Shown: piece by piece, positions 682 through 50,907 of the stretch | Layout of the letters: each line of letters begins with the position of its first letter | How positions within the stretch are numbered: position 1 is the stretch's first letter | NCBI GenBank assembly: GCA_041645165.1 | Contig: JBAZQN010000007.1 | Span: 8,318 to 72,317 of the forward strand | Length of the DNA stretch: 64,000 bases | Reading direction: 5' to 3' | Origin: Patescibacteria group bacterium | Lineage (GTDB): Bacteria; Patescibacteriota; Patescibacteriia; 2-02-FULL-49-11 | Made by a program: the position numbers and the translations under genes | The notes under the pieces: model-generated | Seen by the model: only the letters and a program-made list of their open reading frames with translations | Told to the model about the DNA's origin: nothing | Database searches by the model: none

Positions 682-1944
682 TTATTCTCTCAATGGTTTT
701 AGTCCCGGCAATTCCTGTCCTGACAAAAATGCGAGCATCGCTCCTCCGCCCGTTGATACGAACCCAAACTGATCTCTCACTCCCGCCTGATCCACCAGAT
801 CCAGCGTGTCTCCACCGCCGATAACGGTAAAAGAAGGCGTTTTGACCAGATTTTTGGCAAGATCGATACTTGAACGGGCGAATAATGGCACTTCAAAATA
901 ACCAAGAGGCCCGTTCCATACCGTAAGCTTAGAGCGCGAGGCTGAAGCTACCATCGCTTTCACGGTCTGAGGCCCGATATCGTAAATAAATTCATCATCT
1001 CTTACCTCATCAACCGCACAATGGCGCAGTCCTCTTCCTTTGGCATCCTGCGCAACCGTGACATCAACCGGAAGCTGCACTTTTTCCCAACCAGGAAAAG
1101 AAAGCACCTCTTCAAATCCCTTCATGGTCATCGAAAGCCCAACGGGTTTTCCTTGGTAGGAGAGGATGGTATTGGCGGCCGCGCCACCGATAAAGAGCGC
1201 ATCCACGCGCGGCAGCATGTTTTTAATAATCGGCAGTTTCGTTTCAAGTTTCACGCCGCCTAAGATCAAGGTAAAGGGATGCGCGGGATTATCCACGAGC
1301 GTACTTAAATGCGCGACCTCGTCTATGAGAAGCGCTCCTGCAAAACTCGGTACCAGTTCGGTGATGGCGGCAACAGATGCGTGCTTCCTGTGGGAAGCGG
1401 AAAACTGGTCATTCACAAAATAATCCGCGTGGTGCGTAAGAGAGCGCGCGAACTCCGGATCATTCGCTTCCTCTTCGGGGTGGAAACGCACATTTTCAAG
1501 CAGCACGAGGTCGCCCGGCCGCGCGTGGTCTATTACTTCTTCCGTAGCAATACCTGTGCAGTCCGGTGCGCATAAAATGAGCGCCGTGCGCTTACCCTGC
1601 ACGCGAGAAGGCGGCACGGCGCCACGTTCAAAATTCGTCCATACCACTTCATTGGGAATACCCTGCTGGATAAGCAAGCCGCTCAAACAATGCGCTATGG
1701 GGCGCACACGCAGCTCTTCGCGCACCATCCCCTTTGGCCTTCCTACGTGGGTCAAGAGCACCACGACCGCGCCCTGTTCCATGAGGTAGGTAATGGTGGG
1801 CAAAGAACGTTTGATCCGCCAGCCGCCGTGCGGATCAACTTCATAACCGCCACTCAAAGGGCGCAACGGCACGTTGAAATCCACGCGGACAAGGACGCGC
1901 TTTCCCGCGAGATCTTTGACCGAACGTATGTCACGGAGTTGCAT
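682..1944 (-). CDS. pgk: phosphoglycerate kinase
   Basis: 420 aa. The N-terminus KRVLVRVDFNVPL, the length and the overall similarity are typical of PGK. It sits directly upstream of eno. Confidence 0.9.
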   Translation of the reverse strand: MQLRDIRSVKDLAGKRVLVRVDFNVPLRPLSGGYEVDPHGGWRIKRSLPTITYLMEQGAVVVLLTHVGRPKGMVREELRVRPIAHCLSGLLIQQGIPNEVVWTNFERGAVPPSRVQGKRTALILCAPDCTGIATEEVIDHARPGDLVLLENVRFHPEEEANDPEFARSLTHHADYFVNDQFSASHRKHASVAAITELVPSFAGALLIDEVAHLSTLVDNPAHPFTLILGGVKLETKLPIIKNMLPRVDALFIGGAAANTILSYQGKPVGLSMTMKGFEEVLSFPGWEKVQLPVDVTVAQDAKGRGLRHCAVDEVRDDEFIYDIGPQTVKAMVASASRSKLTVWNGPLGYFEVPLFARSSIDLAKNLVKTPSFTVIGGGDTLDLVDQAGVRDQFGFVSTGGGAMLAFLSGQELPGLKPLRE

Positions 1945-2128
1945 GAATATACTATACCAAAAAAAACCTTTAAGTTCTAGGATGGACTAAATTATAATTC
2001 CCATCTTACAATAAATTATGGAAACCGCCCCTCAAAGTCCCCTCCTTACTAAGGAGGGGATGGGGAGGTCTCCTTAGTGAGAGGGATTGAAATTCCGTTA
2101 CAATCAATTATCACCATTCTTTTCACTT

Positions 2129-2986
2129 TTACTGCGAGGTTCGTGAGGTAATCACTATTATCTTCTTCTCCCCTTCTTCTATTTTCTCCTTCTCCCCGGG
2201 AAAATCGTGAATAGCGTTCCAGATAACCTCATAAGGATAGCGATATCCTTCGCCGCGGCGCGTACCGACGTCATTAGTGATGAATTCCTGTTTCTCATCG
2301 TCAAATCCGCGGACCACTATCATATGGTACCAAGGTCCGGGCTGGCGGAAATATGGATTTTTTAAAAGCCGGCCTGCCATTGGCGCGATGACTAAATTCC
2401 CTCCTTTCAAAATCTCTTTCACCTCTTCCACCCCCTTAACCTCTTTAACCTCAACTCCGATCCCATACACCTGACGCCCGATCTCCGCGGTGCGTTCGGC
2501 ATCACTGTCGCGGTAATCGCCATACTGTTCCTTTTGGTACGACACAAGCTTTAAAATTTCATCTCGCATTTCTTCTTGGGTAAGCGTTTCCATATGGTGC
2601 GCGAAACGGTTCGCAAGCGCCAAGGCCGCCTCTTCGCACGCTTCTCCCCACGGCTCCCGCCAATCGCCAAACGGCGCCTGAGGCTGAAAAGGAACCGGCA
2701 GTACGACGTTATCCGACCTATCCTCCCTCTCAGTCTTATCTATCATATCCGCCGTATCCGACTTATTCGTTCCATCAGCCTTATCCGAATTAATATTTGC
2801 CTTATACGACCTATCGGTCTTATCCGTCCTCTTAGTCTCACCTATGATATCTAACCTATCCACTGTATGTGACTTATCCGTCCTATCAATCCTATAAAAA
2901 GAATCCTCCGGAATAGGAAGGCTTAATCGATACGCAACCACTATCCCTAATAGAATGCTAAGAGCAATGACCGCGGTCCATTTCAT
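2129..2986 (-). CDS. membrane-anchored C39-like cysteine peptidase domain protein with a D/K/T-rich repetitive linker
   Basis: N-terminal TM/signal anchor. Catalytic-Cys context WGEACEEAALALANRF and later PWYHMIVVRGFDDEKQEFITND match the Peptidase_C39-like (C39_2) Cys/His pattern. The linker (aa ~35-95) is encoded by TATCC-type DNA repeats. Confidence 0.55.
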   Translation of the reverse strand: MKWTAVIALSILLGIVVAYRLSLPIPEDSFYRIDRTDKSHTVDRLDIIGETKRTDKTDRSYKANINSDKADGTNKSDTADMIDKTEREDRSDNVVLPVPFQPQAPFGDWREPWGEACEEAALALANRFAHHMETLTQEEMRDEILKLVSYQKEQYGDYRDSDAERTAEIGRQVYGIGVEVKEVKGVEEVKEILKGGNLVIAPMAGRLLKNPYFRQPGPWYHMIVVRGFDDEKQEFITNDVGTRRGEGYRYPYEVIWNAIHDFPGEKEKIEEGEKKIIVITSRTSQ

Positions 2987-3732
2987 ATTCGCAGCACTGA
3001 CGTATAGATATCATCCCGCGGATGAATCTTCAATTTACCTCTTTCGCCTCTGGTAATAAACGTAACCGGCGCATCCTCGATGACTGCGATTGGCGTGCGC
3101 TCGTCTCCCTCGCCCATCGCAAGGACTGCCGCGCTCGCGAGGCAATCCGCGGCTGACACTTTGGTCATCCGCAAGCGCCTCCCCATTAAATCTTTTTTTC
3201 CCACGTAATTCTTTTGTCCTTCAAATCCAAAATACCCTAATGCAATGCCTATGACACCGTGCCGCAAAGGCATAGTCCATGAATCAGTAATAAGCACGCC
3301 GAGCCGTTTCACTTTGTAACGCTGTTTAAACGCATCGTGCAAACGCTTTGCGCTTTCAAAGGCATTCTTAGGCCAAAGAATAAATCCGCCAAACGCATTG
3401 GACTCGTCGATGCCTGCATTGGGAATGAGCATCCCATTCTTTAATGCAAGCCAGCAATGCTCGCTCGGCCACACCTTGTCCGCTTCCTTCCGTACTAATA
3501 TCTCTAGCTGCTTTTCTCTTTCTCTATCTGCGTGAATCTGCGTTTTAGGCAAGCGTGACGATCTGCGTATATCCGCGTCTTTGGGTATGAATCTCCCTTC
3601 GCTTAAACTTACCACTTTTGAAGTAATCGCAATCACACTGCCTTCTTTCACACGGAGAAGCGCGCGATGAATTATCTTAGTGATATCATCACCCGTTTTC
3701 ACTAACGGTGTTTTTATGGGGGTTATATGCAT
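2983..3732 (-). CDS. CofE-like protein (F420-0:gamma-glutamyl ligase family)
   Basis: 249 aa with LIPNAGIDESNA and LITDSW motifs characteristic of the CofE/F420 ligase fold. Confidence 0.55.
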   Translation of the reverse strand: MHITPIKTPLVKTGDDITKIIHRALLRVKEGSVIAITSKVVSLSEGRFIPKDADIRRSSRLPKTQIHADREREKQLEILVRKEADKVWPSEHCWLALKNGMLIPNAGIDESNAFGGFILWPKNAFESAKRLHDAFKQRYKVKRLGVLITDSWTMPLRHGVIGIALGYFGFEGQKNYVGKKDLMGRRLRMTKVSAADCLASAAVLAMGEGDERTPIAVIEDAPVTFITRGERGKLKIHPRDDIYTSVLRI

Positions 3733-9477: not shown

Positions 9478-9493
9478 ACATCAGCAATAAATC

Positions 9494-9925
9494 CTAAACA
9501 GGATTTAGAATTTTTTCACTCACCTTTCTCCAACGAGCGCAATATTCATTTACCGGAATATAGGTGATGCCCAGCTTCGGGTACACATCTTCCGCATCCT
9601 GCACACGGTCGTCAATGGCGAAAGAGATACCTTCAGGCAATTTCGCTTTGTATCCCCCTACCACAAGTTCGCCTTCCGGAAACCCGTGCTTTTGAAGCCA
9701 CTCCTGATACACGCCGCGCTGGTCTTCACCGCGGTGTCCGAGATAGACGAGGCTGAACCGCTCATGCATGACCTTGCAGAATTCAACCGCGCCCTCAACC
9801 GGCAAAGATTCTATTAAACGCCGCAGGTAGCCTGAATCGTGTTTGGTGACCTTAAGATAAAGAATGGCCCGATCGTCCAGAATCGTGCCTTCGAGATAAA
9901 TAAGAAGTTTTGGTTTAATTATCAT
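9494..9925 (-). CDS. HAD-like hydrolase-fold protein with a degenerate motif I
   Basis: LLIYLEGTILDD resembles the DxDGT motif I with E in place of the first Asp. C-terminal AIDDRVQDAE resembles motif IV. Confidence 0.35.
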   Translation of the reverse strand: MIIKPKLLIYLEGTILDDRAILYLKVTKHDSGYLRRLIESLPVEGAVEFCKVMHERFSLVYLGHRGEDQRGVYQEWLQKHGFPEGELVVGGYKAKLPEGISFAIDDRVQDAEDVYPKLGITYIPVNEYCARWRKVSEKILNPV

Positions 9926-10110
9926 AATTATGACATGAAGATTCTAGATTATTACCAATCTGTCTTTGCTCTCCCCCTTAAGATAAGGGGGACTTAAAAG
10001 GGAGTTATGAAAACTTGCTAAAATTTCTATTACCTCTATCCTACCACATTCCCCGCCACTTAAGCAAAAACACCCTTTGAGGATTTTCGCGATCAATCAA
10101 CCGCATTGTC

Positions 10111-10130
10111 ATTCCCGCGAAGGCGGGAAT
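10111..10130. repeat. attcccgcgaaggcgggaat hairpin, a member of the TCCCGC-N3/4-GCGGGA hairpin family
   Basis: Perfect 8-bp stem with a 4-nt loop. Related hairpins occur at 5720-5762 and 22621-22665. Confidence 0.6.
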
Positions 10131-10290
10131 CCAGAAATCACCATACTCACGTAATCACTCAACCTACAAGCTTCCTCACCCTCACCTTTGTACTACCATC
10201 ACTAGGTCTCAAATCTTTCATCTACCTCTCTGTCCTATTCAAAATGACCAAATATCAATTATCAATAATAAAACTTATGCTGGATACAAG

Positions 10291-10324
10291 GACAATTAAT
10301 CTCACGATCGTGAAAATAATTGTT
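10291..10324. repeat. 34-bp palindrome family, copy A (GACAATTAATCTCACGATCGTGAAAATAATTGT)
   Basis: Perfect CACGATCGTG core flanked by inverted AT-rich arms. See copies at 13947, 14266, 14368, 14632 and 15342. Confidence 0.85.
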
Positions 10325-10770
10325 CTCTCTTCTCTAAAATAACTGCTTATTGAGTACTACTCTTGCGCAACCCTCTGCACTCAACTCCTTCAGTGAGGTT
10401 GCCTGCAAAAAAGTGTCTCGGAGGATTTGCGGGCACGGTCTCCGACCTCACGTCGGAGGAGCAAATCCGAGAGTCAAGTGGCCAACTCCTCGCAGGGGAA
10501 TTGGACCGCGTCTTTTTCTGCAGGCAATCCGAACGCTAGCCCCCATTGCTCCATTGCCAATTATGAATCGGGACGCACTCCAAAATCCTCCCCCTATGGC
10601 TTCGCCATATCTTGATGATAAAAAGAGGGAGGTTAGGTGAGGGTGTCTGTCGCAAATAAGTATATGCCACTTTTCCCATTGCCCACACCATAATTTTCTG
10701 TTAAGGTAACTTAATCCAAAAACTTAATAAACAGTGAACTTTTAAAATTTATCCAAAGAAAGGACGGTGT

Positions 10771-11046
10771 GTGATGACAAGGGTATATGTCGTTAAAAGC
10801 GACCACTCATTGGCTCAACTTGTCTTCCCTCCAAGACAAGGGAGAAATAATACCCTGCGGAAACGTGTCAGTGGTATAGTCAAGACCGCAGAGTTCCGCG
10901 GGATATTTTCAGGAGGGGAATATGGAGTTTTTCGTCAAAATGATGGGCAGTACATCGGACGGGCTCAACATGACTACGTAAAATTAATCGAATTCTGTAC
11001 CAAACACAATGGAGGTAAGGCACCGAAAAGTATTTATGTAGTGTAG
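10771..11046 (+). CDS. hypothetical small protein
   Basis: 91-aa ORF with an RBS-like aaagaaaggacgg upstream. It sits immediately upstream of purB. No family recognised. Confidence 0.3.
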   Translation: MMTRVYVVKSDHSLAQLVFPPRQGRNNTLRKRVSGIVKTAEFRGIFSGGEYGVFRQNDGQYIGRAQHDYVKLIEFCTKHNGGKAPKSIYVV

Positions 11047-11084
11047 TAAAACAAATAACCTTTTTAAAAGAAAGGAGGGATCAA

Positions 11085-12380
11085 ATGATCCCACGTTATA
11101 CGCGGCCAGAAATGGGGGCGATCTGGGACGACATATATAGATTCCGCACATGGCTCAAAGTGGAGCTTGCGGCCTGTGAAGCATGGGCCGAACTTGGCCA
11201 CATACCCGAAGATGACTTGGAGGAAATCAGGACCAAGGCTCGGTTTGATGTGGAGCGGATTGCGAAAATCGAGAATGAAGTCAAACACGACGTCATCGCT
11301 TTCTTGACTAATGTGGCGGAGTATGTCGGCCCTTCGTCCCGATTCATCCATCTTGGTATGACCTCTTCCGATCTGCTGGATACCGCTCTGGCTTTGCAGA
11401 TGAAAGAGGCTGGAGAAATAATTGAGCAAGACATTCTCACTCTACGGAAGGTGTTGCGTGCGCAAGCGATTGCGCATAAAAACACAATCTGCATCGGGCG
11501 CTCTCACGGCATTCATGCAGAACCTACTTCTTTCGGCCTCAAGTTCGTTCTATGGCATGATGAGATGGATCGTAACCTTGATAGGTTACAACGTGCCATC
11601 GAAACCATATCCGTTGGGATGATGTCGGGAGCGGTCGGCACGTATGCTTTTTTGGATCCCCGGGTGGAGGAAATAGTCTGCCAGAAGCTTGGACTGAAGC
11701 CTGCCCGTATTTCCACCCAAATTATTCAACGTGACGTGCACGCCGAGTTCATGACGACGTTAGCCTTACTCGGCTGCAGCGTAGAAAAGATCGCGGTTGA
11801 GATACGCCACCTGCAAAGAACAGAAGTTTTGGAAGCCGAAGAGCCTTTTGCGAAGGGTCAGAAAGGGTCTTCGGCCATGCCGCATAAGCGCAATCCCATT
11901 GGCTGCGAAAATATTTCCGGTTTAGCCAGATTGCTGAGAACCAATGCTTTGGCAGCCATGGAAAACGTCGCGCTCTGGCACGAACGGGACATCAGCCATT
12001 CTTCGGTGGAGCGAGTCATTCTGCCAGATAGTTGTATTCTGGCAGATTACATGCTGGCACGGATGACCAAGATTCTCGAGAATCTGGTCGTCTACCCGGA
12101 TAATATGCTGGCAAACTTAAGATTGACGCGAGGCTTGATTTTTTCACAACCTGTTCTCTTGGCTTTGACACAAGCAGGAATGAGTCGTGAGGAGGCGTAT
12201 CAAATCGTGCAGACACACACAATGGCCTGCTGGCAAGAACGGAGCGATTTCAAGGCGGTCATTTTGGCCGATCGACGCATTACAAAATTGCTAAAGCACG
12301 ATACAATTGAAGCCTGCTTTGATGAGACCATTGGTCTCAAGCATGTCGATTACATCTATAAAAAGGTCGGCCTTTTATAG
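11085..12380 (+). CDS. purB: adenylosuccinate lyase
   Basis: 431 aa. The N-terminus MIPRYTRPEMGAIW and a length near 430 aa are typical of PurB. Strong RBS aaaggaggga. Confidence 0.9.
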   Translation: MIPRYTRPEMGAIWDDIYRFRTWLKVELAACEAWAELGHIPEDDLEEIRTKARFDVERIAKIENEVKHDVIAFLTNVAEYVGPSSRFIHLGMTSSDLLDTALALQMKEAGEIIEQDILTLRKVLRAQAIAHKNTICIGRSHGIHAEPTSFGLKFVLWHDEMDRNLDRLQRAIETISVGMMSGAVGTYAFLDPRVEEIVCQKLGLKPARISTQIIQRDVHAEFMTTLALLGCSVEKIAVEIRHLQRTEVLEAEEPFAKGQKGSSAMPHKRNPIGCENISGLARLLRTNALAAMENVALWHERDISHSSVERVILPDSCILADYMLARMTKILENLVVYPDNMLANLRLTRGLIFSQPVLLALTQAGMSREEAYQIVQTHTMACWQERSDFKAVILADRRITKLLKHDTIEACFDETIGLKHVDYIYKKVGLL

Positions 12381-12471
12381 GCGCGACTGCATTTAGGGAG
12401 GTGATAAGAAAAATAAAAACTCAAAACCCGGGGGATTTTCAAGTCATGACAAGTAACTGGGAGATAGTAAA

Positions 12472-13785
12472 ATGAACCCATTCGAAAAAGATACAATGAT
12501 AATCGAGGGTAAGACTAAGAAGGTTTATTACGTCAAAGGCAACGAACACCTTGCCATTTTTGAAAATAAACCAGACGTCACAGCCTTCGATGATCCCAAA
12601 TTCACTAAACAATTCGAAGCAAAGGCCACATACGCCACGACCACAACCTGCCGCGTATTCGAGCTATTGAAAGATGCTGGCATCCCTGTAGCATACAAGC
12701 AACGACTATCTGCTTCTGAGTTTCTTGCCTTACGTTGTAATATGATCCCATTAGAAGTGGTTGGCCGTCGACTTGCAGTGGGTAGTTATCTTAAGAGACA
12801 TCCAGAGCTGGCACTTGATGGCGCCTTACCACCTCATCGTTTCCACCGTCTTGTTGCAGAATTCTTTTTAAAAACTACTGGCGGCAAGTTAATTGGACGA
12901 GATGGCGAAATTCTTATTGAAGGATTGGATCCGTCAAAAGGGGAAGAGGATCCGTTTATACCCAATCCGTTCGAACCGGTATGGCAACTCTTCCACTCCA
13001 AAAAGCCAACTTGGGACAATTCTGCCAACCTTGAGCGTACCCTAAGATGCGATTCCGTTGCAGGGACGAGCATGATGCAAGAGATGGAAAAAATTCTCCG
13101 CCGGGTTTTTTTCGTCCTTGAAGGAGCATGGAATACACTTGGTTATCGTTTAGTTGATCTGAAAATTGAATTCGGTATCACAACTGACGGAAATTGCCTC
13201 GTTGTTGCCGATGTAATTGACAACGATAGCTGGCGTCTTCGCGATGCAACCTGGCAAGAGTTAAGCAAACAGCTCTTTAGGGAAGGAGCAGCCTTGGACG
13301 AAGTTGAAGAAAAGTATGGCTTTGTAGCGAGCCTGGTTGAACGATTTCGAATTCCTAAACAAGTCATGGTTTTATGGCGTGCCTCAACGAAAGATGATTT
13401 CCCAATAACTGGAATCCTACCAGGAGTCGAAGTTCAACAGATAACTTTGTCTGGACACAAATACCCGCAAGTATGCTTAGACAAGTTAGAGGAAATAATG
13501 CGTAATTACCCAGACGGTGGAGCTATCGTAGTAAAAGTGGGAATGAGTAATGGACTGGGACCAATGTTGGCCGCACGTACAACCTGGCCAGTTATTACCA
13601 TTCCCGCATCCACAAAGGATGCCCCAAGCGATGTGTGGAGCTCTTTGCATCTGCCATCACTTGTTCCGATGGCAACCATCCTATCTGATAAAAATGCGTT
13701 TGATTTTGCTCTTAATGTACTGTCTGCTAAAAATCCTGCGGTGTATATGCATCGTCAATTCGCAAATGAACAACTCGATAAATAG
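12472..13785 (+). CDS. purC: SAICAR synthetase (PurC) fused to a PurE-like AIR carboxylase/mutase domain
   Basis: The N-terminal ~300 aa are PurC-like (KKVYYVKGNEHLAIFENKPDVTAFD..., a long SAICAR-synthetase fold). The C-terminal ~140 aa (VMVLWRASTKDDFPITG...GGAIVVKVGMSNGLGPMLAARTTWPVITIPAS) resemble the PurE Rossmann core (GS-D, AG-AAHLPG-A-T--PVIGVP). Confidence 0.55.
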   Translation: MNPFEKDTMIIEGKTKKVYYVKGNEHLAIFENKPDVTAFDDPKFTKQFEAKATYATTTTCRVFELLKDAGIPVAYKQRLSASEFLALRCNMIPLEVVGRRLAVGSYLKRHPELALDGALPPHRFHRLVAEFFLKTTGGKLIGRDGEILIEGLDPSKGEEDPFIPNPFEPVWQLFHSKKPTWDNSANLERTLRCDSVAGTSMMQEMEKILRRVFFVLEGAWNTLGYRLVDLKIEFGITTDGNCLVVADVIDNDSWRLRDATWQELSKQLFREGAALDEVEEKYGFVASLVERFRIPKQVMVLWRASTKDDFPITGILPGVEVQQITLSGHKYPQVCLDKLEEIMRNYPDGGAIVVKVGMSNGLGPMLAARTTWPVITIPASTKDAPSDVWSSLHLPSLVPMATILSDKNAFDFALNVLSAKNPAVYMHRQFANEQLDK

Positions 13786-13793
13786 AAGAAAAA

Positions 13794-13836
13794 AGGCGGA
13801 CACGGAGTGAGGAACCTTGTCCGCTTTGCCATTTTT
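13794..13836 (+). terminator. putative intrinsic terminator after purC-purE
   Basis: gcggacacgg...ccttgtccgc hairpin followed by TTTGCCATTTTT. Confidence 0.4.
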
Positions 13837-13946
13837 AAGCCCCCATTTCACCCTCTCCAATATCTTCTTTCTTCCCCTCTACCGCTTTCGTCCGCTTTCG
13901 TCCGTCTCAACCAGCACTAAAATCTAAACCAACACTAAAAACGAAA

Positions 13947-13980
13947 GACAATTAATCTCACGATCGTGAGGATAATGTCC
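13947..13980. repeat. 34-bp palindrome family, copy B
   Basis: gacaattaatctcacgatcgtgaggataatgtcc. Confidence 0.85.
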
Positions 13981-14045
13981 CTTCCTGTACATTACCTCTC
14001 TCGACAATATCACATTTCCATAAAATTTTCTGTCCATATTCATAT

Positions 14046-14215
14046 GAAGCTCCGCGGGCTTACACCCGCGGTGTCTTCCTCAACAGGAGATCCGGCGGAA
14101 TCCGCTTTAAGCTGCCTGCCGCCTTCGTCCCGACATGTTGGGACTTCGGCGGGTCCGCAATCCCGCATTCATCCGCGTATCTTACGCCCGCGGTTTTTTG
14201 CGGAGGCGGATAAAG
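14046..14215. repeat. ~170-nt hairpin-rich element, copy 1 of a two-copy family (candidate ncRNA or MITE)
   Basis: gaagctccgcgggcttacacccgcggtg ... cccgcattcatccgcgtatcttacgcccgcgg ttttttgcggaggcggataaa. It is homologous to 50570-50722, and the stems differ by paired, stem-preserving substitutions. Confidence 0.6.
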
Positions 14216-14265
14216 TGAAAACATCAATGATTATAAGTATTCAGAAATGAATTTCAATGAATGCC

Positions 14266-14304
14266 GACGACAATTAAAAATACGATCGTGACAATAATGT
14301 CCCC
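14266..14304. repeat. 34-bp palindrome family, copy C
   Basis: gacgacaattaaaaatacgatcgtgacaataatgtcccc. Confidence 0.8.
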
Positions 14305-14367
14305 TTGTCTTTCCCCACTTCCCGAATATGCCATCTTCCTACTTCTATTATTGCCTTTTTCAAGAGA

Positions 14368-14546
14368 GCAATTAATTCTACGATTCAGCCGACTGAAGCC
14401 ACAAGGCCACTATGGCGAAATTGGCTCACCCGCCTGCCAACGCCTGTCAGCAATGAACGGTGACATTCATCACGTTGTTATTATCCCTGACCAACATAAC
14501 GTTCCCCGGGAAAGGCAGATGGCGGGCAGGTGACAATAATGTCCCT
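14368..14546. repeat. 34-bp palindrome, copy D, split at its centre by two nested insertions
   Basis: Left half gcaattaattctacga and right half gtgacaataatgtccc are separated by a ~44-bp insert (ttcagccgac...ctatggcgaaattggctc, 14384-14427). A ~100-bp MITE-like element (cccgcctgcc...ggcgggcagg, 14429-14530) follows. Confidence 0.7.
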
Positions 14547-14631
14547 CCTATTTCCCCTTCATCGCCAGTTCTTTCCATTTCTCGTATCTCACCTCTTCCC
14601 TCCACGCCCAATATTCTATACTATAAAGAGC

Positions 14632-14666
14632 GCAATTATTTTCACGATCGTGAAAATAATGTCCCT
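14632..14666. repeat. 34-bp palindrome family, copy E
   Basis: gcaattattttcacgatcgtgaaaataatgtccc, immediately 3' of the PaaX-like gene. Confidence 0.85.
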
Positions 14667-14698
14667 TCACCTTTTTCTATTTTCCTTGCGTCGCATTA

Positions 14699-15250
14699 TT
14701 ACAGCCCAAACATCTTTTCCGCCTGCGCCATACCGTCAAAGTAGTCTGCCCGAATGTAACGGACATACTTCCCCACCTTGTAGTACGCCGTGGTCGCATT
14801 AATCTCGTCCTGACATTCATACGGATAAGCCCACACGCTTAAATTCACGTAACGGAATCCGAGATCACGGAGTTTTTTCCGGAATGCATCGCGCGCGCGG
14901 CGAAAATCTTCAGGAATATCAAACACGACTATACGCCATTTCCCGTCCCAGTGGGGAGGTTTCATTATGGTAATCGAATCGATCGCTCTTCCTTTCAATA
15001 CCTCCTTCCCCCTCTGGGTGAGCCGATACTCCCATGCGGTACGTTTACTGCTCACCCGCTCCACATACCCTTGTCGCTCGAATCTCCGCAGCGTGCGGCG
15101 CAGCGGTTTGCGCGGAATCGAATAGCGATTCGCACCCATGCCGAAGAGCTGCACTGCATTGGGCGCCATAACAGCCACGGTGAGCATTCCAATGCCCTCA
15201 AGAATTTTCCAAATGGTATCAGCGTACGCTTTTCCTTTCTTGGGTCTCAT
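14699..15250 (-). CDS. PaaX-like transcriptional regulator (wHTH N-terminal domain plus PaaX_C-like C-terminal domain)
   Basis: WDGKWRIVVFDIPE matches the PaaX hallmark WDGKWLLLL-E. The C-terminal RRARDAFRKKLRDLGFRYVNLSVWAY also has a Cas2-like character. Confidence 0.45.
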   Translation of the reverse strand: MRPKKGKAYADTIWKILEGIGMLTVAVMAPNAVQLFGMGANRYSIPRKPLRRTLRRFERQGYVERVSSKRTAWEYRLTQRGKEVLKGRAIDSITIMKPPHWDGKWRIVVFDIPEDFRRARDAFRKKLRDLGFRYVNLSVWAYPYECQDEINATTAYYKVGKYVRYIRADYFDGMAQAEKMFGL

Positions 15251-29423: not shown

Positions 29424-30713
29424 ATGAACAAAATCCAACCAACGATTCTCAAAGGAACCCGCGATGTGCTCCCTCCGCAAATGATACAGCGCAATGCGGT
29501 CATGGAAACCATGCGTAAGACTTTTGAAAGTTTCGGATATGCACCGATTGAAACGCCGATAATTTGCCCTGCGGAGACCATTTTGGGCAAATATGGCGAA
29601 GAAGGAGACCGGCTCACCTATTCATTCAAAGACCGAGGGGGAAGGCTCATCGCGTTGCCATATGATTTGACGGTGCCCTTCGCGCGTTTTTTCGCGGCAA
29701 ATTATCAAAAATTGCCTTTTCCTTTCAAGCGCTACCAAATGCAGCGTGTGTGGAGAGCGGAAAAACCGCAAAAAGGTCGCCTGCGCGAATTTTACCAGTG
29801 CGATATTGACATCATCGGATCAAAAAGCCTGATCTGTGAAGCAGAAATTGTCAAAATTATCGCGGTAGTATTTGAAAAACTGGGAATTCGAAACATCGTG
29901 ATCAAGGCGAACTCAAGACGGCTGATGAATGCAATATTGCAGTCTTATGGCATTGATCAAGACAATGCGGTATCAGTCATTCGCATAATCGACAAAATGA
30001 CAAAAATCGGGAAGGATTCTGTAATATCAGAATTGAAAAAAATGGGGGTAAACGACGCCGAAAAAATAATCAAAACGCTTTCTCCTGAAGATACAAACGC
30101 AAACACGCTGAAAAAACTAGCCGCGTACGACAGCTCCTCTTTGGAAGAATTTTTAGCTTACTGTAATACCCTTGGCGTACCTGAAAAATGCCTCCAAATT
30201 GATCCGACGCTGGCGAGAGGGCTCGATTACTATACTGGGCTTACCTTTGAGGCGGTGAGCGAGAATACGGATTTCGGATCAATATGCGCCGGCGGCCGTT
30301 ATGACGATCTCTGCGGCATTTTCTCTGATAAAAACTTTTCCGGAGTCGGCGTCGCGTTCGGTTTTGAACGGATCATGCTATTGCTCGAACAACTGCGGCT
30401 TTTACCCAACGGCAGCGCACCGTCGCAAGTTCTCGTGACTATTTTTGATAAAAATTCAATCCAAGAAGCGCTGCAGATTTATAACAGGCTCATTGAAGCC
30501 GGCGTCGCGGCGGAAATTTACTTTGAACCTGAAAAGCTGTCAAAACAATTCAAATTCGCGGATAAAAAACAAATTCCGTTTGTGCTTATTCAGGGGCCTG
30601 ATGAGAGGGGAAAAAGTGAAATTACCGTCAAACGAATGCAAAACGGAAAACAGAAAACTTTGCCGGTAAGCCAATTAATTTCCTATCTAGGAAATTTCTA
30701 TGAAACGAAATAA
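29424..30713 (+). CDS. hisS: histidyl-tRNA synthetase-like protein (HisRS motifs plus an anticodon-binding domain) at the head of the his operon; possibly doubles as HisZ
   Basis: Motif 2 WRAEKPQKGRLREFYQCD, motif 3 GGRYDDL, and a C-terminal anticodon-binding-like domain. Its 14-nt overlap with the short-form hisG is the position HisZ normally occupies. Confidence 0.6.
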   Translation: MNKIQPTILKGTRDVLPPQMIQRNAVMETMRKTFESFGYAPIETPIICPAETILGKYGEEGDRLTYSFKDRGGRLIALPYDLTVPFARFFAANYQKLPFPFKRYQMQRVWRAEKPQKGRLREFYQCDIDIIGSKSLICEAEIVKIIAVVFEKLGIRNIVIKANSRRLMNAILQSYGIDQDNAVSVIRIIDKMTKIGKDSVISELKKMGVNDAEKIIKTLSPEDTNANTLKKLAAYDSSSLEEFLAYCNTLGVPEKCLQIDPTLARGLDYYTGLTFEAVSENTDFGSICAGGRYDDLCGIFSDKNFSGVGVAFGFERIMLLLEQLRLLPNGSAPSQVLVTIFDKNSIQEALQIYNRLIEAGVAAEIYFEPEKLSKQFKFADKKQIPFVLIQGPDERGKSEITVKRMQNGKQKTLPVSQLISYLGNFYETK

Positions 30714-31320
30714 TATCAGGATCGCAATTCAGAAAGAAGGGCGGCTTAAAAACCCGAGTCTTGAGTTTCTTGAATCTTTAGGCCTTCAATTTTCCAAAGC
30801 CAGCGGCAGAACGCTTGTCGTGCCCTGCGAGAACGTTGATGTCGAAATTTTGTATGTGCGACACAGCGATATACCGCAGTATCTCCAGAGCGGAGCGGCT
30901 GATTTTGCCGTTGTCGGCGGCAATGTGCTGTATGAAAATAATTTTAACATAAGAGAAATAAAACAACTGGATTTTGGCATATGCAGTTTGGTGATCGCCA
31001 TACCAATCGACTCTCCCATTCAAAAAACACAGGAGCTTGAAGGAGAACGTATCGCAACGTCTTATCCAAACAGCTTGCGCAAATTTTTACAAAAACAAAA
31101 AATCAATGCGTCCATCATTGAAATAACGGGCTCCGTTGAAGTTGCGCCCGCGTTGGGGCTTGCAGATGCGATTTGCGATCTTACACAGACAGGGAATACG
31201 CTCAAAGAAAACGCTCTGAAACCGATAGAAACATTATTTGATTCTATGGCTGTATTCATTGCGTCGCCGTTTGAAAGCAGGCAGAAGAGTGGATTTATCA
31301 ATAAATTTTTAACCCAATAA
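30700..31320 (+). CDS. hisG: ATP phosphoribosyltransferase, short form
   Basis: 206 aa (HisG_S length). MKRNNIRIAIQKEGRL...DLTQTGNTLKENAL. Confidence 0.85.
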   Translation: MKRNNIRIAIQKEGRLKNPSLEFLESLGLQFSKASGRTLVVPCENVDVEILYVRHSDIPQYLQSGAADFAVVGGNVLYENNFNIREIKQLDFGICSLVIAIPIDSPIQKTQELEGERIATSYPNSLRKFLQKQKINASIIEITGSVEVAPALGLADAICDLTQTGNTLKENALKPIETLFDSMAVFIASPFESRQKSGFINKFLTQ

Positions 31321-31322
31321 AT

Positions 31323-31577
31323 ATGATTGAACTAATTGGATACACAGCAGCATTTCTTACGGCATCTGTTATGATACCTCAAATTGCTAGATCAATTCGC
31401 ACGAAAAGCGTTGGAGATATCTCGTTTATGATGTTGGCTTTATACATTACAAATACAGGATTATGGGTAACTTATGGCGTTCTCATAGGGGCTGGACCTG
31501 TTGTCGTAGCAGATAGTTTTGCTTGCTGTGCTGGAATTACACAATTAATTATAAAATTAAAATACAATAAATTATGA
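31323..31577 (+). CDS. SemiSWEET / PQ-loop small membrane transporter
   Basis: 84 aa, three predicted TM helices, PQ motif (MIPQIARSIRTKS) in TM1. It is embedded between hisG and hisD with 2-nt gaps. Confidence 0.55.
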   Translation: MIELIGYTAAFLTASVMIPQIARSIRTKSVGDISFMMLALYITNTGLWVTYGVLIGAGPVVVADSFACCAGITQLIIKLKYNKL

Positions 31578-32860
31578 AAAAATATTACTTCAAGCAACTT
31601 GACGACGTCTTATTAAAAAACCTTTGCGAAAGAAAGGCAATCCGTTTTGATGACGTTTTGCCCGTTGTTAAAAACATACTGGATAAAGTAAAAAATAATG
31701 GCGATGAAGCTGTGGGTGAATTTACGCAAAAATTCGACAAAGTTCACCTTTCGTCTCTCGCCGTAACTCAACAGGAAATTGATCGGGCTTGCAAGCGCAT
31801 TCCGACAAACATTCAAAATGCTTTCGCACAAGCGGCGCGTAATATTGAGAAATTTCACAAATCACAATTGGTTAAACGGATAAAAGTGGAAACAGCAGCG
31901 GGGGTTACCTGTTTTACAGAGACGAGGCCGATTGAAAAAGTCGGATTATACATTCCGGGCGGCACCGCTTCCCTGCCTTCCACAGTGCTCATGCTTGCAA
32001 TTCCTGCAAAGCTGGCGGGATGCGGGGAAATCGTGCTGGTGACCCCGCCCGCTAAAGACGGAAACGTCCCCGATGTTATATTATTCGCCGCCACGCTATG
32101 CGGAATTGCGCGAATCTATAAAATTGGCGGCGCACAAGCTATTGCGGCGCTTGCGTTCGGCACGGAAAGTATACCAAAGGTGTACAAAATTTTCGGTCCT
32201 GGCAATCAGTACGTCACCGCTGCAAAGATGCTTGTTTCCATCGATCCTGAAGGCGCTGCTATTGATATGCCCGCGGGCCCGACGGAGGTGCTGGTGATTG
32301 CCGATGAAAGCGCGCGAGCCGATTTTGTGGCAGGCGATCTTTTGGCGCAAGCGGAGCACGGTGCTGATTCGCAGGCGATACTCATTGCCACTTCCGACAA
32401 GAAAGCTGACGAGGTTTCAGATGAAGCGTATCGGCAACTACAAACCCTGCCGCGAAAAGAGACTGCTCAAAAATCTTTGAAAAACAGCTTCGCCATCATT
32501 GTCAATTCTATGAATGAGGCCCTTGCATTCTCCAACAGATATGCGCCGGAACACCTTATCTTGAATGTGAAAAACGCCTTCAGGTACGTGCCAAAAGTGG
32601 AAAGCGCCGGTTCCGTATTTTTAGGTCCGTACTCCTGTGAATCAGCCGGGGATTATGCAAGCGGTGCCAATCACACGTTGCCGACGTATGCGCGAGCCCG
32701 CGCCTCCGGAGGCGTCTCGGTAAGTAGTTTTCAAAAACAAATAACCTTTCAAAAAGTGACGAAGCAAGGCGCGAAAAATATAAACCCTCTCGTGTCCACC
32801 ATGGCCGGTCAAGAATCGCTTGAGGGGCACAAAAGAGCCATGCAATTGCGTTTAGAATGA
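31574..32860 (+). CDS. hisD: histidinol dehydrogenase
   Basis: 428 aa. The HisD length plus motifs IGGAQAIAALAFGTESIPKVYKIFGPGNQYV and EHGADSQ. Confidence 0.9.
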   Translation: MKKYYFKQLDDVLLKNLCERKAIRFDDVLPVVKNILDKVKNNGDEAVGEFTQKFDKVHLSSLAVTQQEIDRACKRIPTNIQNAFAQAARNIEKFHKSQLVKRIKVETAAGVTCFTETRPIEKVGLYIPGGTASLPSTVLMLAIPAKLAGCGEIVLVTPPAKDGNVPDVILFAATLCGIARIYKIGGAQAIAALAFGTESIPKVYKIFGPGNQYVTAAKMLVSIDPEGAAIDMPAGPTEVLVIADESARADFVAGDLLAQAEHGADSQAILIATSDKKADEVSDEAYRQLQTLPRKETAQKSLKNSFAIIVNSMNEALAFSNRYAPEHLILNVKNAFRYVPKVESAGSVFLGPYSCESAGDYASGANHTLPTYARARASGGVSVSSFQKQITFQKVTKQGAKNINPLVSTMAGQESLEGHKRAMQLRLE

Positions 32861-32870
32861 CTGTTATAAT

Positions 32871-34436
32871 ATGAGGAATCTCGCACTGGATAGAATCCGA
32901 AAGATGAAACCGTATATACCACCATTAGACGGCCGATTTATGTATGGTGGAATGCTGCTGGATTTCAGTGAGAACACATTATCATCCCGAAGTAAGGTCG
33001 CTCAAGCACTGAATAAATTTGTGAAGGAGAGAAAACTGCATATCTATCCCGAGTATTATAATTTGGAAGAAATAATCGCAAACTACGCGGGAGTGAATGC
33101 AAATCAGATAATGATCACCAACGGTTCCGACCAAGGAATTGACGTTATCTTTCGCACATTCACCGATAAGGGGAGCAAGGTCATCATTCCGCGCCCCAGC
33201 TTCGCCATGTTTTACCAATGCGCCCAAGTGGTCGGTAATGAAGTGGTGCGCCCCGCATATCGAGAGGAAGATCTTTCATTTCCGTTGGATGAAGTGCTTA
33301 ATTCGATTGATGACGAGGTAAGGCTCGTGGTGGTGTGCAATCCCAACAATCCTACGGGTACCGCCGTATCCGTTGCCGACATTGCAAAAATCGCACGTAA
33401 GGCGAAGGAGGCGATCATTTACGTCGATGAGGCATATTTTGAATTTTCAAAGATCACCGCTCTGCCACTCATTAATAGATTTCCTAACATCGTCATCACG
33501 AGGACTTTTTCGAAAGCATTCGGTCTCGCCTCCATGAGAATCGGCTACGTCATTGCAAGAAAAGAATATATATCCGAAATGCTGAAAGTGCGCGGTCCTT
33601 TTGATATCAATATGGCCGCGTACTATACCGCCAGTGCCGCACTTGAGGAGAAACAAAATATGCAACGTTACGTTGATGAAGTCATGCAGCGCGCAAAACC
33701 GTTTGTGGAAAAATTCTTTTCCCAAAATGCCATACCATATTTCTCCTCTTGTGCAAATTTTATTCTGTTTCGTCCAGACAATCCCGCCCGCGTCATGACA
33801 CAACTTCGTAGGGGCGGTGCGCTGGTGAGACCGCAAACTCAAAAAGGGGTGGAAAACACTTTACGGGTAAGCATTGGCACCGCTGATCAAATGCAGAAAT
33901 TCGTGGAGATTTATAAAAAATTCGTTCTGAGCAACTCTCAACAAAAATATGCATTTCTTGATCGTGACGGCACACTGATATATGAACCACAAACCACGTA
34001 TCAAATCGACAGTGTAAGGAAACTAAAAATCCTTGACGGCGCGATAAAAGGACTGCAAGAACTGCAAAAAAGGGGTTATTCATTAATAATGATTTCCAAC
34101 CAGGACGGCTTGGGCACCTCGTCATTCCCTCGTAAGAATTTTAAAGCTCCACAAGAGAAGATGCTGAATATTTTCCGCAAAAAGGGAATAACTTTTGAAC
34201 GGATATTCATCTGCCCTCACCTGCCGCATGAGGCGTGTACTTGCCGGAAACCAAAAATGGGACTGGTGGATGCGTATTTGAGGAACTCAAATTTTGATAA
34301 AAACCTGTCATTGGTGTGCGGAGACAGAAAAAGCGACCGGCAGTTCGCAAAAAATATCGGCCTTACATTCGTCTTTATGGAGACGAACGGCAATTTTTAC
34401 GAAGCAATTAAATCAGTGCTAACCGAATCTCTATGA
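32871..34436 (+). CDS. hisC: histidinol-phosphate aminotransferase fused to a HAD-type histidinol-phosphatase domain (HisC-HisN/HisB-N fusion)
   Basis: The N-terminal ~350 aa are a class-II aminotransferase (TRTFSKAFGLASMRIGY). The C-terminal ~165 aa have HAD motifs FLDRDGTL, ISNQDG and GDRKSD, as in the HisB N-terminal phosphatase. Confidence 0.75.
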   Translation: MRNLALDRIRKMKPYIPPLDGRFMYGGMLLDFSENTLSSRSKVAQALNKFVKERKLHIYPEYYNLEEIIANYAGVNANQIMITNGSDQGIDVIFRTFTDKGSKVIIPRPSFAMFYQCAQVVGNEVVRPAYREEDLSFPLDEVLNSIDDEVRLVVVCNPNNPTGTAVSVADIAKIARKAKEAIIYVDEAYFEFSKITALPLINRFPNIVITRTFSKAFGLASMRIGYVIARKEYISEMLKVRGPFDINMAAYYTASAALEEKQNMQRYVDEVMQRAKPFVEKFFSQNAIPYFSSCANFILFRPDNPARVMTQLRRGGALVRPQTQKGVENTLRVSIGTADQMQKFVEIYKKFVLSNSQQKYAFLDRDGTLIYEPQTTYQIDSVRKLKILDGAIKGLQELQKRGYSLIMISNQDGLGTSSFPRKNFKAPQEKMLNIFRKKGITFERIFICPHLPHEACTCRKPKMGLVDAYLRNSNFDKNLSLVCGDRKSDRQFAKNIGLTFVFMETNGNFYEAIKSVLTESL

Positions 34437-35023
34437 AATCAAGAACGGCAACAATCAGGCGCAAGACGATGGAAACGGATATAACTGTAAATGTGAATCT
34501 CGACGGTACGGGCAAATACCGGGTGGATACCGGCATCGGCTTCCTGAATCACATGCTGGAGCTTTTTTCCAAGCATTCATTGATAGATCTCACCCTGAAA
34601 GCGAAAGGCGATGCGAAGGTGGATGAACACCACACTATTGAGGACGTCGGCATCTGTCTCGGCAAGGCGCTGCGCAAGGCTTTAGGGGATAAGAAAGGCA
34701 TTGAGCGGTATGGATTTCTGCTGCCGATGGACGAAGCTCTGACCGAAGCCGCAATTGATTTGGGCGGAAGGCCTTATCTTGTGTGGAACGTTTCTTTTAA
34801 GCGGGAAATGATCGGAGACATGCCGACAGAGCTTTTCGAGGATTTCTTCAAGGCAGTGGCCGATAACCTTCAAGCGAATATCCACCTCAATGTAAAATAC
34901 GGCAGGAATGAACACCACATCGCGGAAAGCGTCTTTAAGGCGCTCGCAAGATGCTTGAGGTCTGCAGTGAGCCGCCAAACTCGCACGAAAAAACTATTAC
35001 CCTCTACCAAAGGAAAACTATGA
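34433..35023 (+). CDS. hisB: imidazoleglycerol-phosphate dehydratase
   Basis: 196 aa with the IGPD conserved His/Glu clusters (DEHHTIED, HHIAES). Confidence 0.85.
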   Translation: MKSRTATIRRKTMETDITVNVNLDGTGKYRVDTGIGFLNHMLELFSKHSLIDLTLKAKGDAKVDEHHTIEDVGICLGKALRKALGDKKGIERYGFLLPMDEALTEAAIDLGGRPYLVWNVSFKREMIGDMPTELFEDFFKAVADNLQANIHLNVKYGRNEHHIAESVFKALARCLRSAVSRQTRTKKLLPSTKGKL

Positions 35024-35610
35024 TTGCCATAATCAATTACAAGGCCGGCAATGTCGCGTCAGTGAAAAATGCGCTGGAACGGCTGGGGAGCGCGTGCACC
35101 GTCACATCCGATCCGGAGGAAATTCTATCCGCTGATGGCGTGATTTTCCCTGGCCAAGGCAGGGCAGGCGCCGCTCTGTCAGAACTGCAAAAGGCACGCA
35201 TTGATACCGTTATCCCTCGAATCACCAAGCCGTTTTTAGGCATTTGTTTAGGGATGCAGCTCCTTGGACGCTTTTCCGAAGAAGATAACACAAAATGTCT
35301 CGAGGTGTTTCAGGGTATAAGTCGCAAGTTTCCGCCGACGCTCAAAACCCCGCACCTCGGCTGGAATAAAGCAGAACTCACGAAAAAATCCCCCCTCACG
35401 GCGGGTATCACGAACGGATCGTACTTTTATTTCGTGCACTCATATTACATGGATGCTACGGAGGATCAAACGGCGGGGACAACGAGTTATGGTTTTGATT
35501 TCACTTCAATCATGCAAAAAGACAACTTTTTTGCCGTCCAGTTCCACCCAGAAAAATCCGGCGCGCAGGGCTTGCGATTGCTTACTAATTTTTACGAATT
35601 ATGCTTGTAA
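35020..35610 (+). CDS. hisH: imidazole glycerol phosphate synthase, glutamine amidotransferase subunit
   Basis: MIAIINYKAGN start and GICLGMQLL nucleophile-Cys context. It overlaps the hisB stop (ATGA). Confidence 0.8.
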   Translation: MIAIINYKAGNVASVKNALERLGSACTVTSDPEEILSADGVIFPGQGRAGAALSELQKARIDTVIPRITKPFLGICLGMQLLGRFSEEDNTKCLEVFQGISRKFPPTLKTPHLGWNKAELTKKSPLTAGITNGSYFYFVHSYYMDATEDQTAGTTSYGFDFTSIMQKDNFFAVQFHPEKSGAQGLRLLTNFYELCL

Positions 35611-37076: not shown

Positions 37077-37756
37077 ATACCGTTAAAAATGCGAAAAAAA
37101 ACGTACTAAAACCTGTTCAGGTTAATATCTCTCATGGGGTAGATAAACTCAACACCGAACGATTGGATTTCGAGAAACTTAGCGGGATCATACCTGCTAT
37201 CATTCAAGATGCCGACACCAAGCTCGTGCTTATGCTGGGTTTTATGAATAAAGACGCACTGAACAAAACAATAAAAAACAGAAAGGTGACTTTTTGGAGT
37301 AGGACAAAAAAACGGCTATGGGAAAAAGGGAAATCTTCTGGCAATACGCTTAAGGTGCTCTCCATTGCCACAGATTGCGACCACGACACGCTTTTGATTT
37401 TAACAAAGCCGCAAGGGCCTGTCTGCCACACCGGTGCCTATTCTTGTTTTGGAGTAAAAAAACAAGAGCGATCTGATTTTTTGAAGGAACTCTATGACCT
37501 GATCGCCACAAGGAAAAAAGAATTGCCGATACGTTCTTACACCACCTCTCTTTTTAACCAAGGGCTGGGTAAAATACTGAAAAAGGTTAAGGAAGAATCC
37601 GGTGAAGTAATACAGGCTGCGAAAAAAGAGTCAAAAACACGGCTCATCGAAGAAAGTGCCGATCTCGTCTATCACTTATGGGTGCTGTTGGCTGAAAAAA
37701 ACATCTCAATCTGCGATCTCCTTACTGAACTCAAACGCAGAAGAAAAGGCGGTTAA
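37073..37756 (+). CDS. hisI: bifunctional phosphoribosyl-AMP cyclohydrolase / phosphoribosyl-ATP pyrophosphatase
   Basis: HisI core (TFWSRTKKRLWEKGKSSGNTLKV...CDHDTLL) plus a C-terminal HisE/MazG-like domain (KILKKVKEESGEVIQAAK). Confidence 0.8.
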   Translation: MNTVKNAKKNVLKPVQVNISHGVDKLNTERLDFEKLSGIIPAIIQDADTKLVLMLGFMNKDALNKTIKNRKVTFWSRTKKRLWEKGKSSGNTLKVLSIATDCDHDTLLILTKPQGPVCHTGAYSCFGVKKQERSDFLKELYDLIATRKKELPIRSYTTSLFNQGLGKILKKVKEESGEVIQAAKKESKTRLIEESADLVYHLWVLLAEKNISICDLLTELKRRRKGG

Positions 37757-50523: not shown

Positions 50524-50569
50524 TTGGACAAATCTGTCAATTGAGTATAAGATTTGTCAAAACGCACGT

Positions 50570-50722
50570 GAAGCTCCACGGCTTTACCGCCGTGGCATCT
50601 TCACGTTCTTCGGCGGAACCCGCCGAAGCGTATCCGCCTTCGCTTGAAGGCTACGGCGGATTACCCGCATCGCATTCATCCACCCCGCCATGGCGGGGTG
50701 GCTTTCTGCGGAGGCGGGTAAA
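50570..50722. repeat. ~155-nt hairpin-rich element, copy 2 of the family seen at 14046-14215 (candidate ncRNA or MITE)
   Basis: gaagctccacggctttaccgccgtgg ... cccgcatcgcattcatccaccccgccatggcggggtgg ctttctgcggaggcgggtaaa. Every stem is complementary within the copy, and the stems differ from copy 1 by paired changes. Confidence 0.6.
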
Positions 50723-50907
50723 ATTTACCATCAGAGGCCTTCATTTTCAGTTGGTCACATTTTGTGACTAGTGCCGTAACAATTTAATTATGCCATATCA
50801 CTGGCGTGTTTTGAGCAGTATTTACAGGGAGATTTGGCACTATGCATGTTGCGAAACTTAATTGTTACGGTACTAGGCCGCAAACCGCGGCGCCCTCCCC
50901 TTTCTCG

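Follow-up and report, generated by a model that had tools for sequence, protein, structure and literature searches.

Can one bacterial gene encode both of the purine enzymes that are fused in animal PAICS, and by which chemistry would its carboxylase half work? The question is raised by a stretch of 64,000 nucleotides from a Patescibacteria group bacterium (contig JBAZQN010000007.1 of assembly GCA_041645165.1, positions 8,318 to 72,317; the whole stretch is called the window below), in which a single open reading frame (ORF) of 437 codons at 12472-13785 joins PurC, the synthetase of succinylaminoimidazolecarboxamide ribotide (SAICAR), to a PurE-like domain. The original prediction, made from the letters of the DNA, described a PAICS-like bifunctional arrangement, considered it unusual in bacteria, and left the class and activity of the PurE part unclear. 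In the recent biochemical literature, direct carboxylation of aminoimidazole ribotide (AIR) and the PurC-PurE fusion are assigned to humans and animals, and PurK with a class I PurE is assigned to microbes; the contrast underlies the choice of the enzymes of N5-carboxyaminoimidazole ribotide (N5-CAIR) as antimicrobial targets (PMC10484210, PMC3261824). The fused PurCE is described as common in eukaryotes, and prokaryotic class II PurE is treated as exceptional (PMC3261824). As set out below, the gene very probably encodes a bacterial bifunctional enzyme of the PAICS type, with predicted SAICAR synthetase and class II AIR carboxylase activities.

Domain architecture and class of the PurE domain

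Both parts of the protein were recognised by Pfam. The N-terminal two thirds matched the SAICAR_synt family (PF01259) with 123.6 bits, where 20 are required (E = 1.4e-35). The AIRC/PurE family (PF00731), which had been proposed as the check on the C-terminus, was matched at residues 318-425 with 54.1 bits, where 30 are required (E = 1.6e-14). The ORF list and the two Pfam matches bear out the joining of a SAICAR synthetase to PurE in one frame, and the C-terminal region is PurE-like rather than a simple extension of PurC. When PDB sequences were searched with phmmer, the top matches were animal PAICS over both domains (Bombyx mori 4JA0, E = 4.8e-47; human 2H31, E = 9.2e-44), well ahead of single PurC (about 1e-18) and single PurE (about 1e-6). 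The C-terminal 147 residues alone found the PurE halves of PAICS as their best PDB matches (4e-12 and 7e-11). An AlphaFold2 monomer model was built with 59 family sequences (predicted local distance difference test score, pLDDT, 92.9; predicted template modelling score, pTM, 0.93), and a Foldseek search with this model returned human PAICS 6YB8 first (E = 2e-33) and Bombyx PAICS (1e-30), followed by single PurCs (template modelling score, TM, up to 0.93 on the target) and then single PurEs, including the class II PurE of Treponema denticola (TM 0.73). Because PAICS leads both the sequence and the Foldseek matches, the protein is read as a PAICS-type fusion with the same domain order, and the PAICS-like arrangement first proposed is thereby supported over the full length.

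The residues of both human PAICS active sites have been listed (PMC9376930), and they were mapped to the window protein through an alignment with human PAICS, in which residues 264-425 of the human sequence were confirmed to be exact against 2H31; conservation was scored over 59 family members. In the PurC domain, the ATP loop G13-K14-T15-K16 and residues T37, E95, K134, K231, E233, D247, D252-S-W-R255, K266, and R270 are identical to human, and no catalytic or binding side chain varies among the 59 members. The active-site model of the human SAICAR synthetase has 24 residues, 21 of which are identical in the window protein. The domain also has conserved insertions, about 40 residues in total, which are missing from human PAICS and are much shorter in a second bacterial clade. 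For the lineage-specific insertion listed in Table 1, AlphaFold2 predicts short beta strands with high pLDDT, and its conservation is similar to that of the remainder of the protein. Through this insertion, the placement of the human Mg ligand D137 is ambiguous between D153 and D160 (MAFFT and pairwise alignments); the invariant D160, which forms a D160-P161 pair inside the insertion, is its likely equivalent.

In the carboxylase site, residues S305, D308, S327, H329, K330, S359, N360, and G361 are invariant in 59/59 members, and G357 (57/59) and L362 (58/59) are nearly so. Two motifs quoted by the original prediction, PVITIP (373-378) and RASTKDD (303-309), are present as described. The second had been contrasted with the canonical loop, and it does differ, being a G-S-x-S-D loop with G replaced by A and S by K; it is nevertheless less aberrant than claimed, since its Ser and Asp (S305 and D308) are invariant in 59/59 members, and the family consensus at this place is W-R-G-S-x-x-D.

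The catalytic His of PurE acts as the general base, a role has been described for the Lys/Arg position (PMC9376930, PMC10484210), and the active sites of class I and class II differ distinctly in one respect, the change from Arg to Lys after the catalytic His (PMC10484210). The window protein has Lys after the catalytic His, a G-M-S-N-G-L-G-P loop, and S390-S-L-H-L-P-S, and these class II motifs are common to human and Bombyx PAICS, T. denticola class II PurE, and the window protein. The class I motifs SAHR, AGGAAHLPG, and S-T-V-Q-M-P were looked for in the window protein and were absent. A neighbour-joining (NJ) tree of PurE domains, made with few reference sequences and a simple distance method, placed the animal, T. 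denticola, and bacterial fusion sequences together as class II, apart from class I, with 96.5% bootstrap support. By the motifs (H-K, G-x-S-N-G-L-G-P, and SSLxxPS) and the NJ tree, the PurE part is assigned to class II, the AIR carboxylases, and the class is no longer unclear. This assignment would also explain why purK is missing from the window: as had been noted for purK, neither this gene nor a stand-alone purE was found by Pfam among its 42 larger ORFs, smaller and overlapping ORFs lying outside the scan.

The PurE part is probably an ordinary and active class II AIR carboxylase domain. It would convert AIR and CO2 directly to carboxyaminoimidazole ribotide (CAIR), without ATP and without PurK, and by homology H329 would serve as the general base, with S305, D308, S327, and K330 holding the nucleotide. 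The PurC domain would then combine CAIR with aspartate to form SAICAR, using ATP and Mg2+, and the product of the upstream purB gene would cleave SAICAR to aminoimidazolecarboxamide ribotide (AICAR). We infer a PAICS-like octamer in which CAIR may be channelled, and a genome in which the remaining pathway is complete.

Compared with animal PAICS (human 2H31/6YB8 and Bombyx mori 4JA0), the window protein has the same N-terminal PurC and C-terminal class II PurE, is colinear over its full length, and shares the motifs DVIDNDSWRL, S-x-H-K, G-x-SNGLGP, and DVWSSLxLPS; identity to human PAICS is 34%, and the catalytic residues match at both sites. Unlike animal PAICS, it is bacterial, carries the PurC insertions of about 40 residues, has a short alpha1 segment (19 against 24 residues), lacks the animal C-terminal tail, and shows the changes G to A, S to K, and R to M in its carboxylase site. 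The stand-alone class II PurE of T. denticola (3RG8/3RGG) has S-A-H-K, G-R-S-N-x-L, and SSLRMPS in common with this group, and the same PurK-independent chemistry would be expected; it differs in being unfused and is about 21% identical to the window PurE domain. It is closer to the human PurE domain (38%) than the window domain is to human (30%). In the canonical route of PurK, class I PurE, and PurC, which is found in Escherichia coli and at the Saccharibacteria and Kaiserbacteria loci of our survey (L043-L056), AIR is likewise turned into SAICAR overall, whereas three proteins and one extra ATP are needed, and the class I PurE carries GSDSD, SAHR, and AGGAAHLPG. Fungal and plant Ade2, a fusion of PurK with class I PurE, likewise joins consecutive purine steps, the partner being PurK and not PurC.

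Distribution, genomic context, and origin

A protein of exactly this sequence is recorded in four sources, and a 77-kb contig of a Patescibacteria metagenome-assembled genome (MAG) encodes it. The best 120 database hits are 55-77% identical to it, measure 431-462 aa, and all have the same two Pfam domains; those with names come from Patescibacteria, Parcubacteria, Pacebacteria, and Minisyncoccia, with one exception, a MAG labelled only 'bacterium'. When 1.84 billion cluster representatives were searched exhaustively, 291 clusters were matched at E<=1e-30, and a scan of one genome per species gave at least 577 relatives. Carriers within Patescibacteria are spread over many lineages, among them Falkowbacteria, Moranbacteria, Magasanikbacteria, and Peregrinibacteria. 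A second clade of fusions, with about 40% identity, occurs in MAGs labelled Verrucomicrobiota/Chthoniobacterales, Xanthobacteraceae/Alphaproteobacteria, Dependentiae, and some Paceibacterota. The GC content is 57-68% at the loci of this clade labelled Verrucomicrobiota or Alphaproteobacteria, in keeping with non-Patescibacteria genomes, and 36-55% at the remaining ones (Dependentiae, Paceibacterota, and some others). A search seeded with the second clade gave about 4000 further proteins, the named ones all from MAGs, and no cultured carrier of the fusion was found among the named matches. The second clade has the same two-domain architecture and forms a 100%-supported group with the window clade in the PurE tree; its own features are the absence of the large PurC insertion, a C-S-(V/I)-H-K catalytic loop, a G-R-S-N-G-A-G-P loop, and a 'DITAGDGAKH' motif that resembles human 'QITAGNAARK'.

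The fusion is widespread in Patescibacteria, present in other phyla, and not rare. The view that it is unusual in bacteria holds for textbook organisms only. Annotation pipelines already name it as bifunctional, several of the best 120 hits being called 'phosphoribosylaminoimidazole carboxylase / phosphoribosylaminoimidazole-succinocarboxamide synthase' by JGI; it is a bacterial member of the known PAICS kind and is biochemically uncharacterised. No paper on bacterial PurC-PurE(II) fusions was found, although this absence is weak evidence because 'pure' is a common word and makes such a search noisy. At one Falkowbacteria locus (MAG, L046, about 1766-3026), the fusion gene is apparently split into pieces of 296 aa and 140 aa, which may come from a frameshift, from an error in sequencing, or from a recent separation of the two domains.

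The genomic context was surveyed at 84 loci (80 from the genome scan and four found earlier) and in the window by calling ORFs, clustering the neighbours, and annotating the recurrent clusters. The purB gene was present at 30/85 loci and lay directly upstream of the PurC or fusion gene at 21; the other pur neighbours were purM (20 loci), purL (17), and purH (5). Around purB and the fusion, synteny with the closest relative (77% identity) is complete, and in another relative only 4 bp separate the two genes and purM follows 9 kb downstream. Neither purK nor a separate purE was found within +/-10 kb at the 39 fusion loci of the first clade (L001-L040) or in the window. At nine Patescibacteria loci, PurC is unfused, measures about 290 aa, and has 49-59% identity to the window PurC part; these loci carry a separate class I PurE with GSDSD, SAHR, and AGGAAHLPG (AIRC, E = 1e-60), and PurK is also present at 4/9 of them. 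This either/or pattern is expected if the fused domain stands in for PurK and class I PurE. Two loci with distant fusions stand out. In the first, from a Dependentiae MAG (L065; 3648-4898 and 10001-11227), a PurK-like ATP-grasp gene occurs in the locus of a fusion with S-L-H-K; in the second, from a Giovannonibacteria MAG (L079; 10001-11257), the S-A-H-R of the fusion resembles class I and its G-R-S-N-G-L-G-P loop resembles class II. They could be intermediates in, or exceptions to, the class I/II split.

In an NJ tree of the PurC region, the bacterial fusions were grouped (81%) in two clades with human PAICS outside, and the unfused Patescibacteria PurCs fell inside the Patescibacteria fusion clade on a backbone with support below 20%. 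The topology suggests that these PurCs lost their PurE domain secondarily. In the PurE tree, the bacterial fusions were monophyletic (100%), and a group of all fusions without T. denticola received 57% as against 42% for animals with T. denticola. Identity of the human PurE domain is 38% with T. denticola PurE, as against 30-34% with the domains of the bacterial fusions. Among 150 representatives, no eukaryotic PAICS and no sequence more than 37% identical to human was found, and because of this limit the 150 are taken to be all bacterial. From these comparisons, it is possible that the animal and bacterial fusions go back to one origin. A wider scenario is tentative, and we hold it to be somewhat doubtful: the PAICS architecture would be old and widespread in bacteria and would share one fusion event with animals, with transfer between domains of life, and Patescibacteria would have switched between the two routes through domain loss and gene replacement.

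Alternative readings of the C-terminal domain

Several observations weigh against a bacterial PAICS with an active class II domain. The NCBIfam equivalogs score under their cut-offs (purC 81 against 189.9, purE 54.5 against 149.6), and because these models score so far under, NCBI names for fusion family members are inconsistent. Three carboxylase-site positions are off-canonical, human G273, S276, and R331 being replaced by A304, K307, and M358. A304 is rare (3/59, as against G in 56/59 family members), and K307 and M358 are common family variants (K in 27 and S in 21 of 59 at position 307; R in 36 and M in 20 at position 358). The segment from S-x-x-D to S-x-H-K has 19 residues as against 24 in human PAICS and all class I PurEs; it is the most variable stretch of the protein, with a family mode of 22 residues. 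The AlphaFold2 model has no helix alpha1 after the S-x-x-D loop, and the short alpha1 segment could alter phosphate binding. Among the surveyed fusions, the Dependentiae locus with the PurK-like gene does not follow the either/or pattern. The visible DNA is 64 kb of the genome, so that purK could lie further off, and enzymology of any bacterial fusion member was not found in the literature.

The alternative that fares best against the evidence, though unlikely, is that the PurE-like domain is inert and serves as an oligomerisation scaffold for PurC, with CAIR coming from another enzyme or from a host. The shortened helix alpha1, the three changed positions, and the low NCBIfam purE score would all fit a domain released from catalysis, and bacteria of the candidate phyla radiation (CPR) are often metabolically dependent on hosts (PMC11608272). 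The conservation of the domain speaks for function: all side chains with a catalytic or binding role in human PAICS, S276 and R331 excepted, are invariant in 59/59 members. In comparison with the 77%-identical relative, the ratio of nonsynonymous to synonymous substitution rates (dN/dS) was 0.09 for PurC and 0.15 for PurE, so purifying selection acts on both domains; they are conserved to a similar degree, with family-wide identities of 0.60-0.62 (PurC) and 0.55 (PurE). The absence of any other purE or purK near the first-clade fusions, and the presence of PurE (nine loci) and PurK (4/9) in the relatives with unfused PurC, also argue against a scaffold.

Slightly less probable still is a class I N5-CAIR mutase (EC 5.4.99.18) whose PurK partner is encoded elsewhere in the genome. 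The limited length of DNA in view leaves space for such a gene, most bacteria use PurK with class I PurE (PMC3261824, PMC10484210), and among the fusions a distant one has SAHR (L079) and another has a PurK-like gene in its locus (L065). The window domain itself points the other way in its Lys after the catalytic His, its G-M-S-N-G-L-G-P loop and SSLHLPS motif, and its place in the 96.5% class II clade, and PurK was seen in 0/39 fusion loci of the first clade.

Two further readings are very improbable, in about equal degree. The C-terminal domain might resemble LarB, a carboxylase/hydrolase of nickel-pincer cofactor synthesis, or be another member of the PurE fold that works outside purine synthesis, given that LarB also has this fold (PMC10484210); no LarB appeared by name among the 37 PDB sequence matches of the PurE domain (E<=1), motifs specific to PAICS and class II are present, purB adjoins the gene, and purM, purL, and purH lie beside it in relatives. 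An artefactual fusion, through misassembly, through an overlooked stop or frameshift between two genes, or through eukaryotic DNA in the bin, could be suspected because the literature holds the architecture to be typical of eukaryotes (PMC3261824), and it is refuted by the intact ORF, the identical protein in four sources at only 34% identity to human PAICS, and thousands of homologues of the same architecture on bacterial contigs as long as 0.9 Mb, where they lie in the company of ribosomal, pur, and further bacterial genes.

The locus in the window and implications for purine synthesis

The coordinates of the gene, its domains and motifs, and the adjoining purB gene are collected in Table 1.

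Table 1. Features of the purB-fusion locus and of the fusion protein (window coordinates)
Feature	Position	Strand	Basis or remarks
PurC-PurE fusion gene, PAICS-type (predicted)	12472..13785	+	Single ATG-start ORF, 437 codons and stop
purB (adenylosuccinate lyase, 431 aa)	11085..12380	+	Pfam Lyase_1 3e-54, ADSL_C 9e-23
Shine-Dalgarno-like GGGAGA	12459..12464	+	7 nt before the fusion-gene ATG, read from the sequence
PurC domain, residues 1-292	12472..13347	+	Pfam PF01259
Lineage-specific PurC insertion, about residues 136-185 ('GLDPxKGEEDPFI...HSKKPxW')	12877..13026	+	Alignments
PurE domain, residues 296-437	13357..13782	+	PF00731, PDB matches, NJ tree
First substrate-binding loop A304-S305-T306-K307-D308	13381..13395	+	Equivalent to human G273-S-T-S-D277
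Catalytic loop S327-G-H329-K330	13450..13461	+	Equivalent to human S301-A-H303-K304; invariant in 59/59
'70s loop' G357-M-S-N-G-L-G-P364	13540..13563	+	Equivalent to human G330-R-S-N-G-L-G-P; AGGAAHLPG in class I
P-V-I-T-I-P strand motif, residues 373-378	13588..13605	+	P373 and V374 nearly invariant

The fusion ORF is uninterrupted, and its N-terminus aligns with those of 58 homologues. The gap between purB, which lies upstream, and the fusion gene is 91 bp; a terminator-like site was searched for on the + strand of this gap and none was found, and the two genes are probably co-transcribed. The purB product acts one step after SAICAR synthetase, and purB is the sole further purine gene among the 42 larger window ORFs scanned with Pfam.

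A repeat of about 33 nt, whose core is the perfect palindrome TCACGATCGTGA, was observed at 10288-10320, 13944-13976, 14266-14298, and 14628-14660 of the window, so that its copies bracket the purB-fusion pair; the core occurs in three exact copies as against 0.16 expected in the whole window. The repeat occupies the non-coding stretch from the fusion gene to a convergent gene for a PaaX_M/HxlR-like regulator (14699..15250, - strand), and one copy is found at the same site between both 3' ends in two syntenic relatives (L085, 5022-5033; L086, 6113-6124). The repeat could represent a hairpin that terminates transcription in both directions, a site where a regulator binds, or a small repeat element. 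The stretches that flank the pair (9478-11084, about 1.6 kb, and 13786-14698, about 0.9 kb) contain no convincing ORF, Rfam family, or tRNA, and Rfam and tRNA scans of the whole window gave no match. In a syntenic relative, the upstream stretch has two small genes, for a 23S_rRNA_IVP-family protein and a 151-aa protein, which seem to be missing or decayed in the window.

A complete histidine operon with unusual gene fusions was recognised by Pfam at 29424-37756 (+ strand). It includes a 521-aa HisC aminotransferase with a C-terminal HAD/PNK3P-type phosphatase domain, a 491-aa protein with two His_biosynth stretches that is apparently a HisA-HisF fusion, and HisIE. Taken with PurC-PurE, these fusions make the genome seem prone to fusing consecutive pathway enzymes. 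At the start of the operon (29424-31320, + strand), a 429-aa HisRS-like protein that keeps its anticodon-binding domain overlaps the start of a short-form HisG (206 aa) by 14 nt. Short HisG normally requires HisZ, a HisRS paralogue without the anticodon-binding domain, and the 429-aa protein may be HisZ or a HisRS in double duty. Elsewhere in the window (49330-52231 and 58421-59656, - strand), genes were found for a DUF4143/AAA_14 ATPase, an RHS-repeat protein, and an AbiEii-type nucleotidyltransferase toxin beside an unannotated 208-aa ORF; they are probably modules for defence or toxin production with no relation to the fusion.

For annotation, the name bifunctional AIR carboxylase / SAICAR synthetase (EC 4.1.1.21 / 6.3.2.6) would be more precise for this gene. 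The arrangement regarded as 'animal' is frequent among Patescibacteria and extends to at least three further phyla of bacteria, which blurs the dichotomy between microbial and animal purine synthesis, and the homologues form a large and diverse sequence set for the study of PAICS evolution and of class I/II specificity. Their interest lies in this bacterial breadth, in the natural switch between class I and class II within Patescibacteria, and in the source of animal PAICS. A fused class II PurE corresponds to the 'animal' purine pathway of ten steps without PurK; if the tentative scenario of one shared fusion event is true, this architecture would be no animal invention. De novo purine synthesis was scored as complete in 32% of 399 CPR MAGs (PMC11608272), which makes a working purine pathway plausible in such organisms. 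The fusion would help to account for de novo purine synthesis in genome-reduced CPR bacteria with one gene and one ATP fewer, and CO2-rich habitats plausibly aid the PurK-free route in these bacteria.

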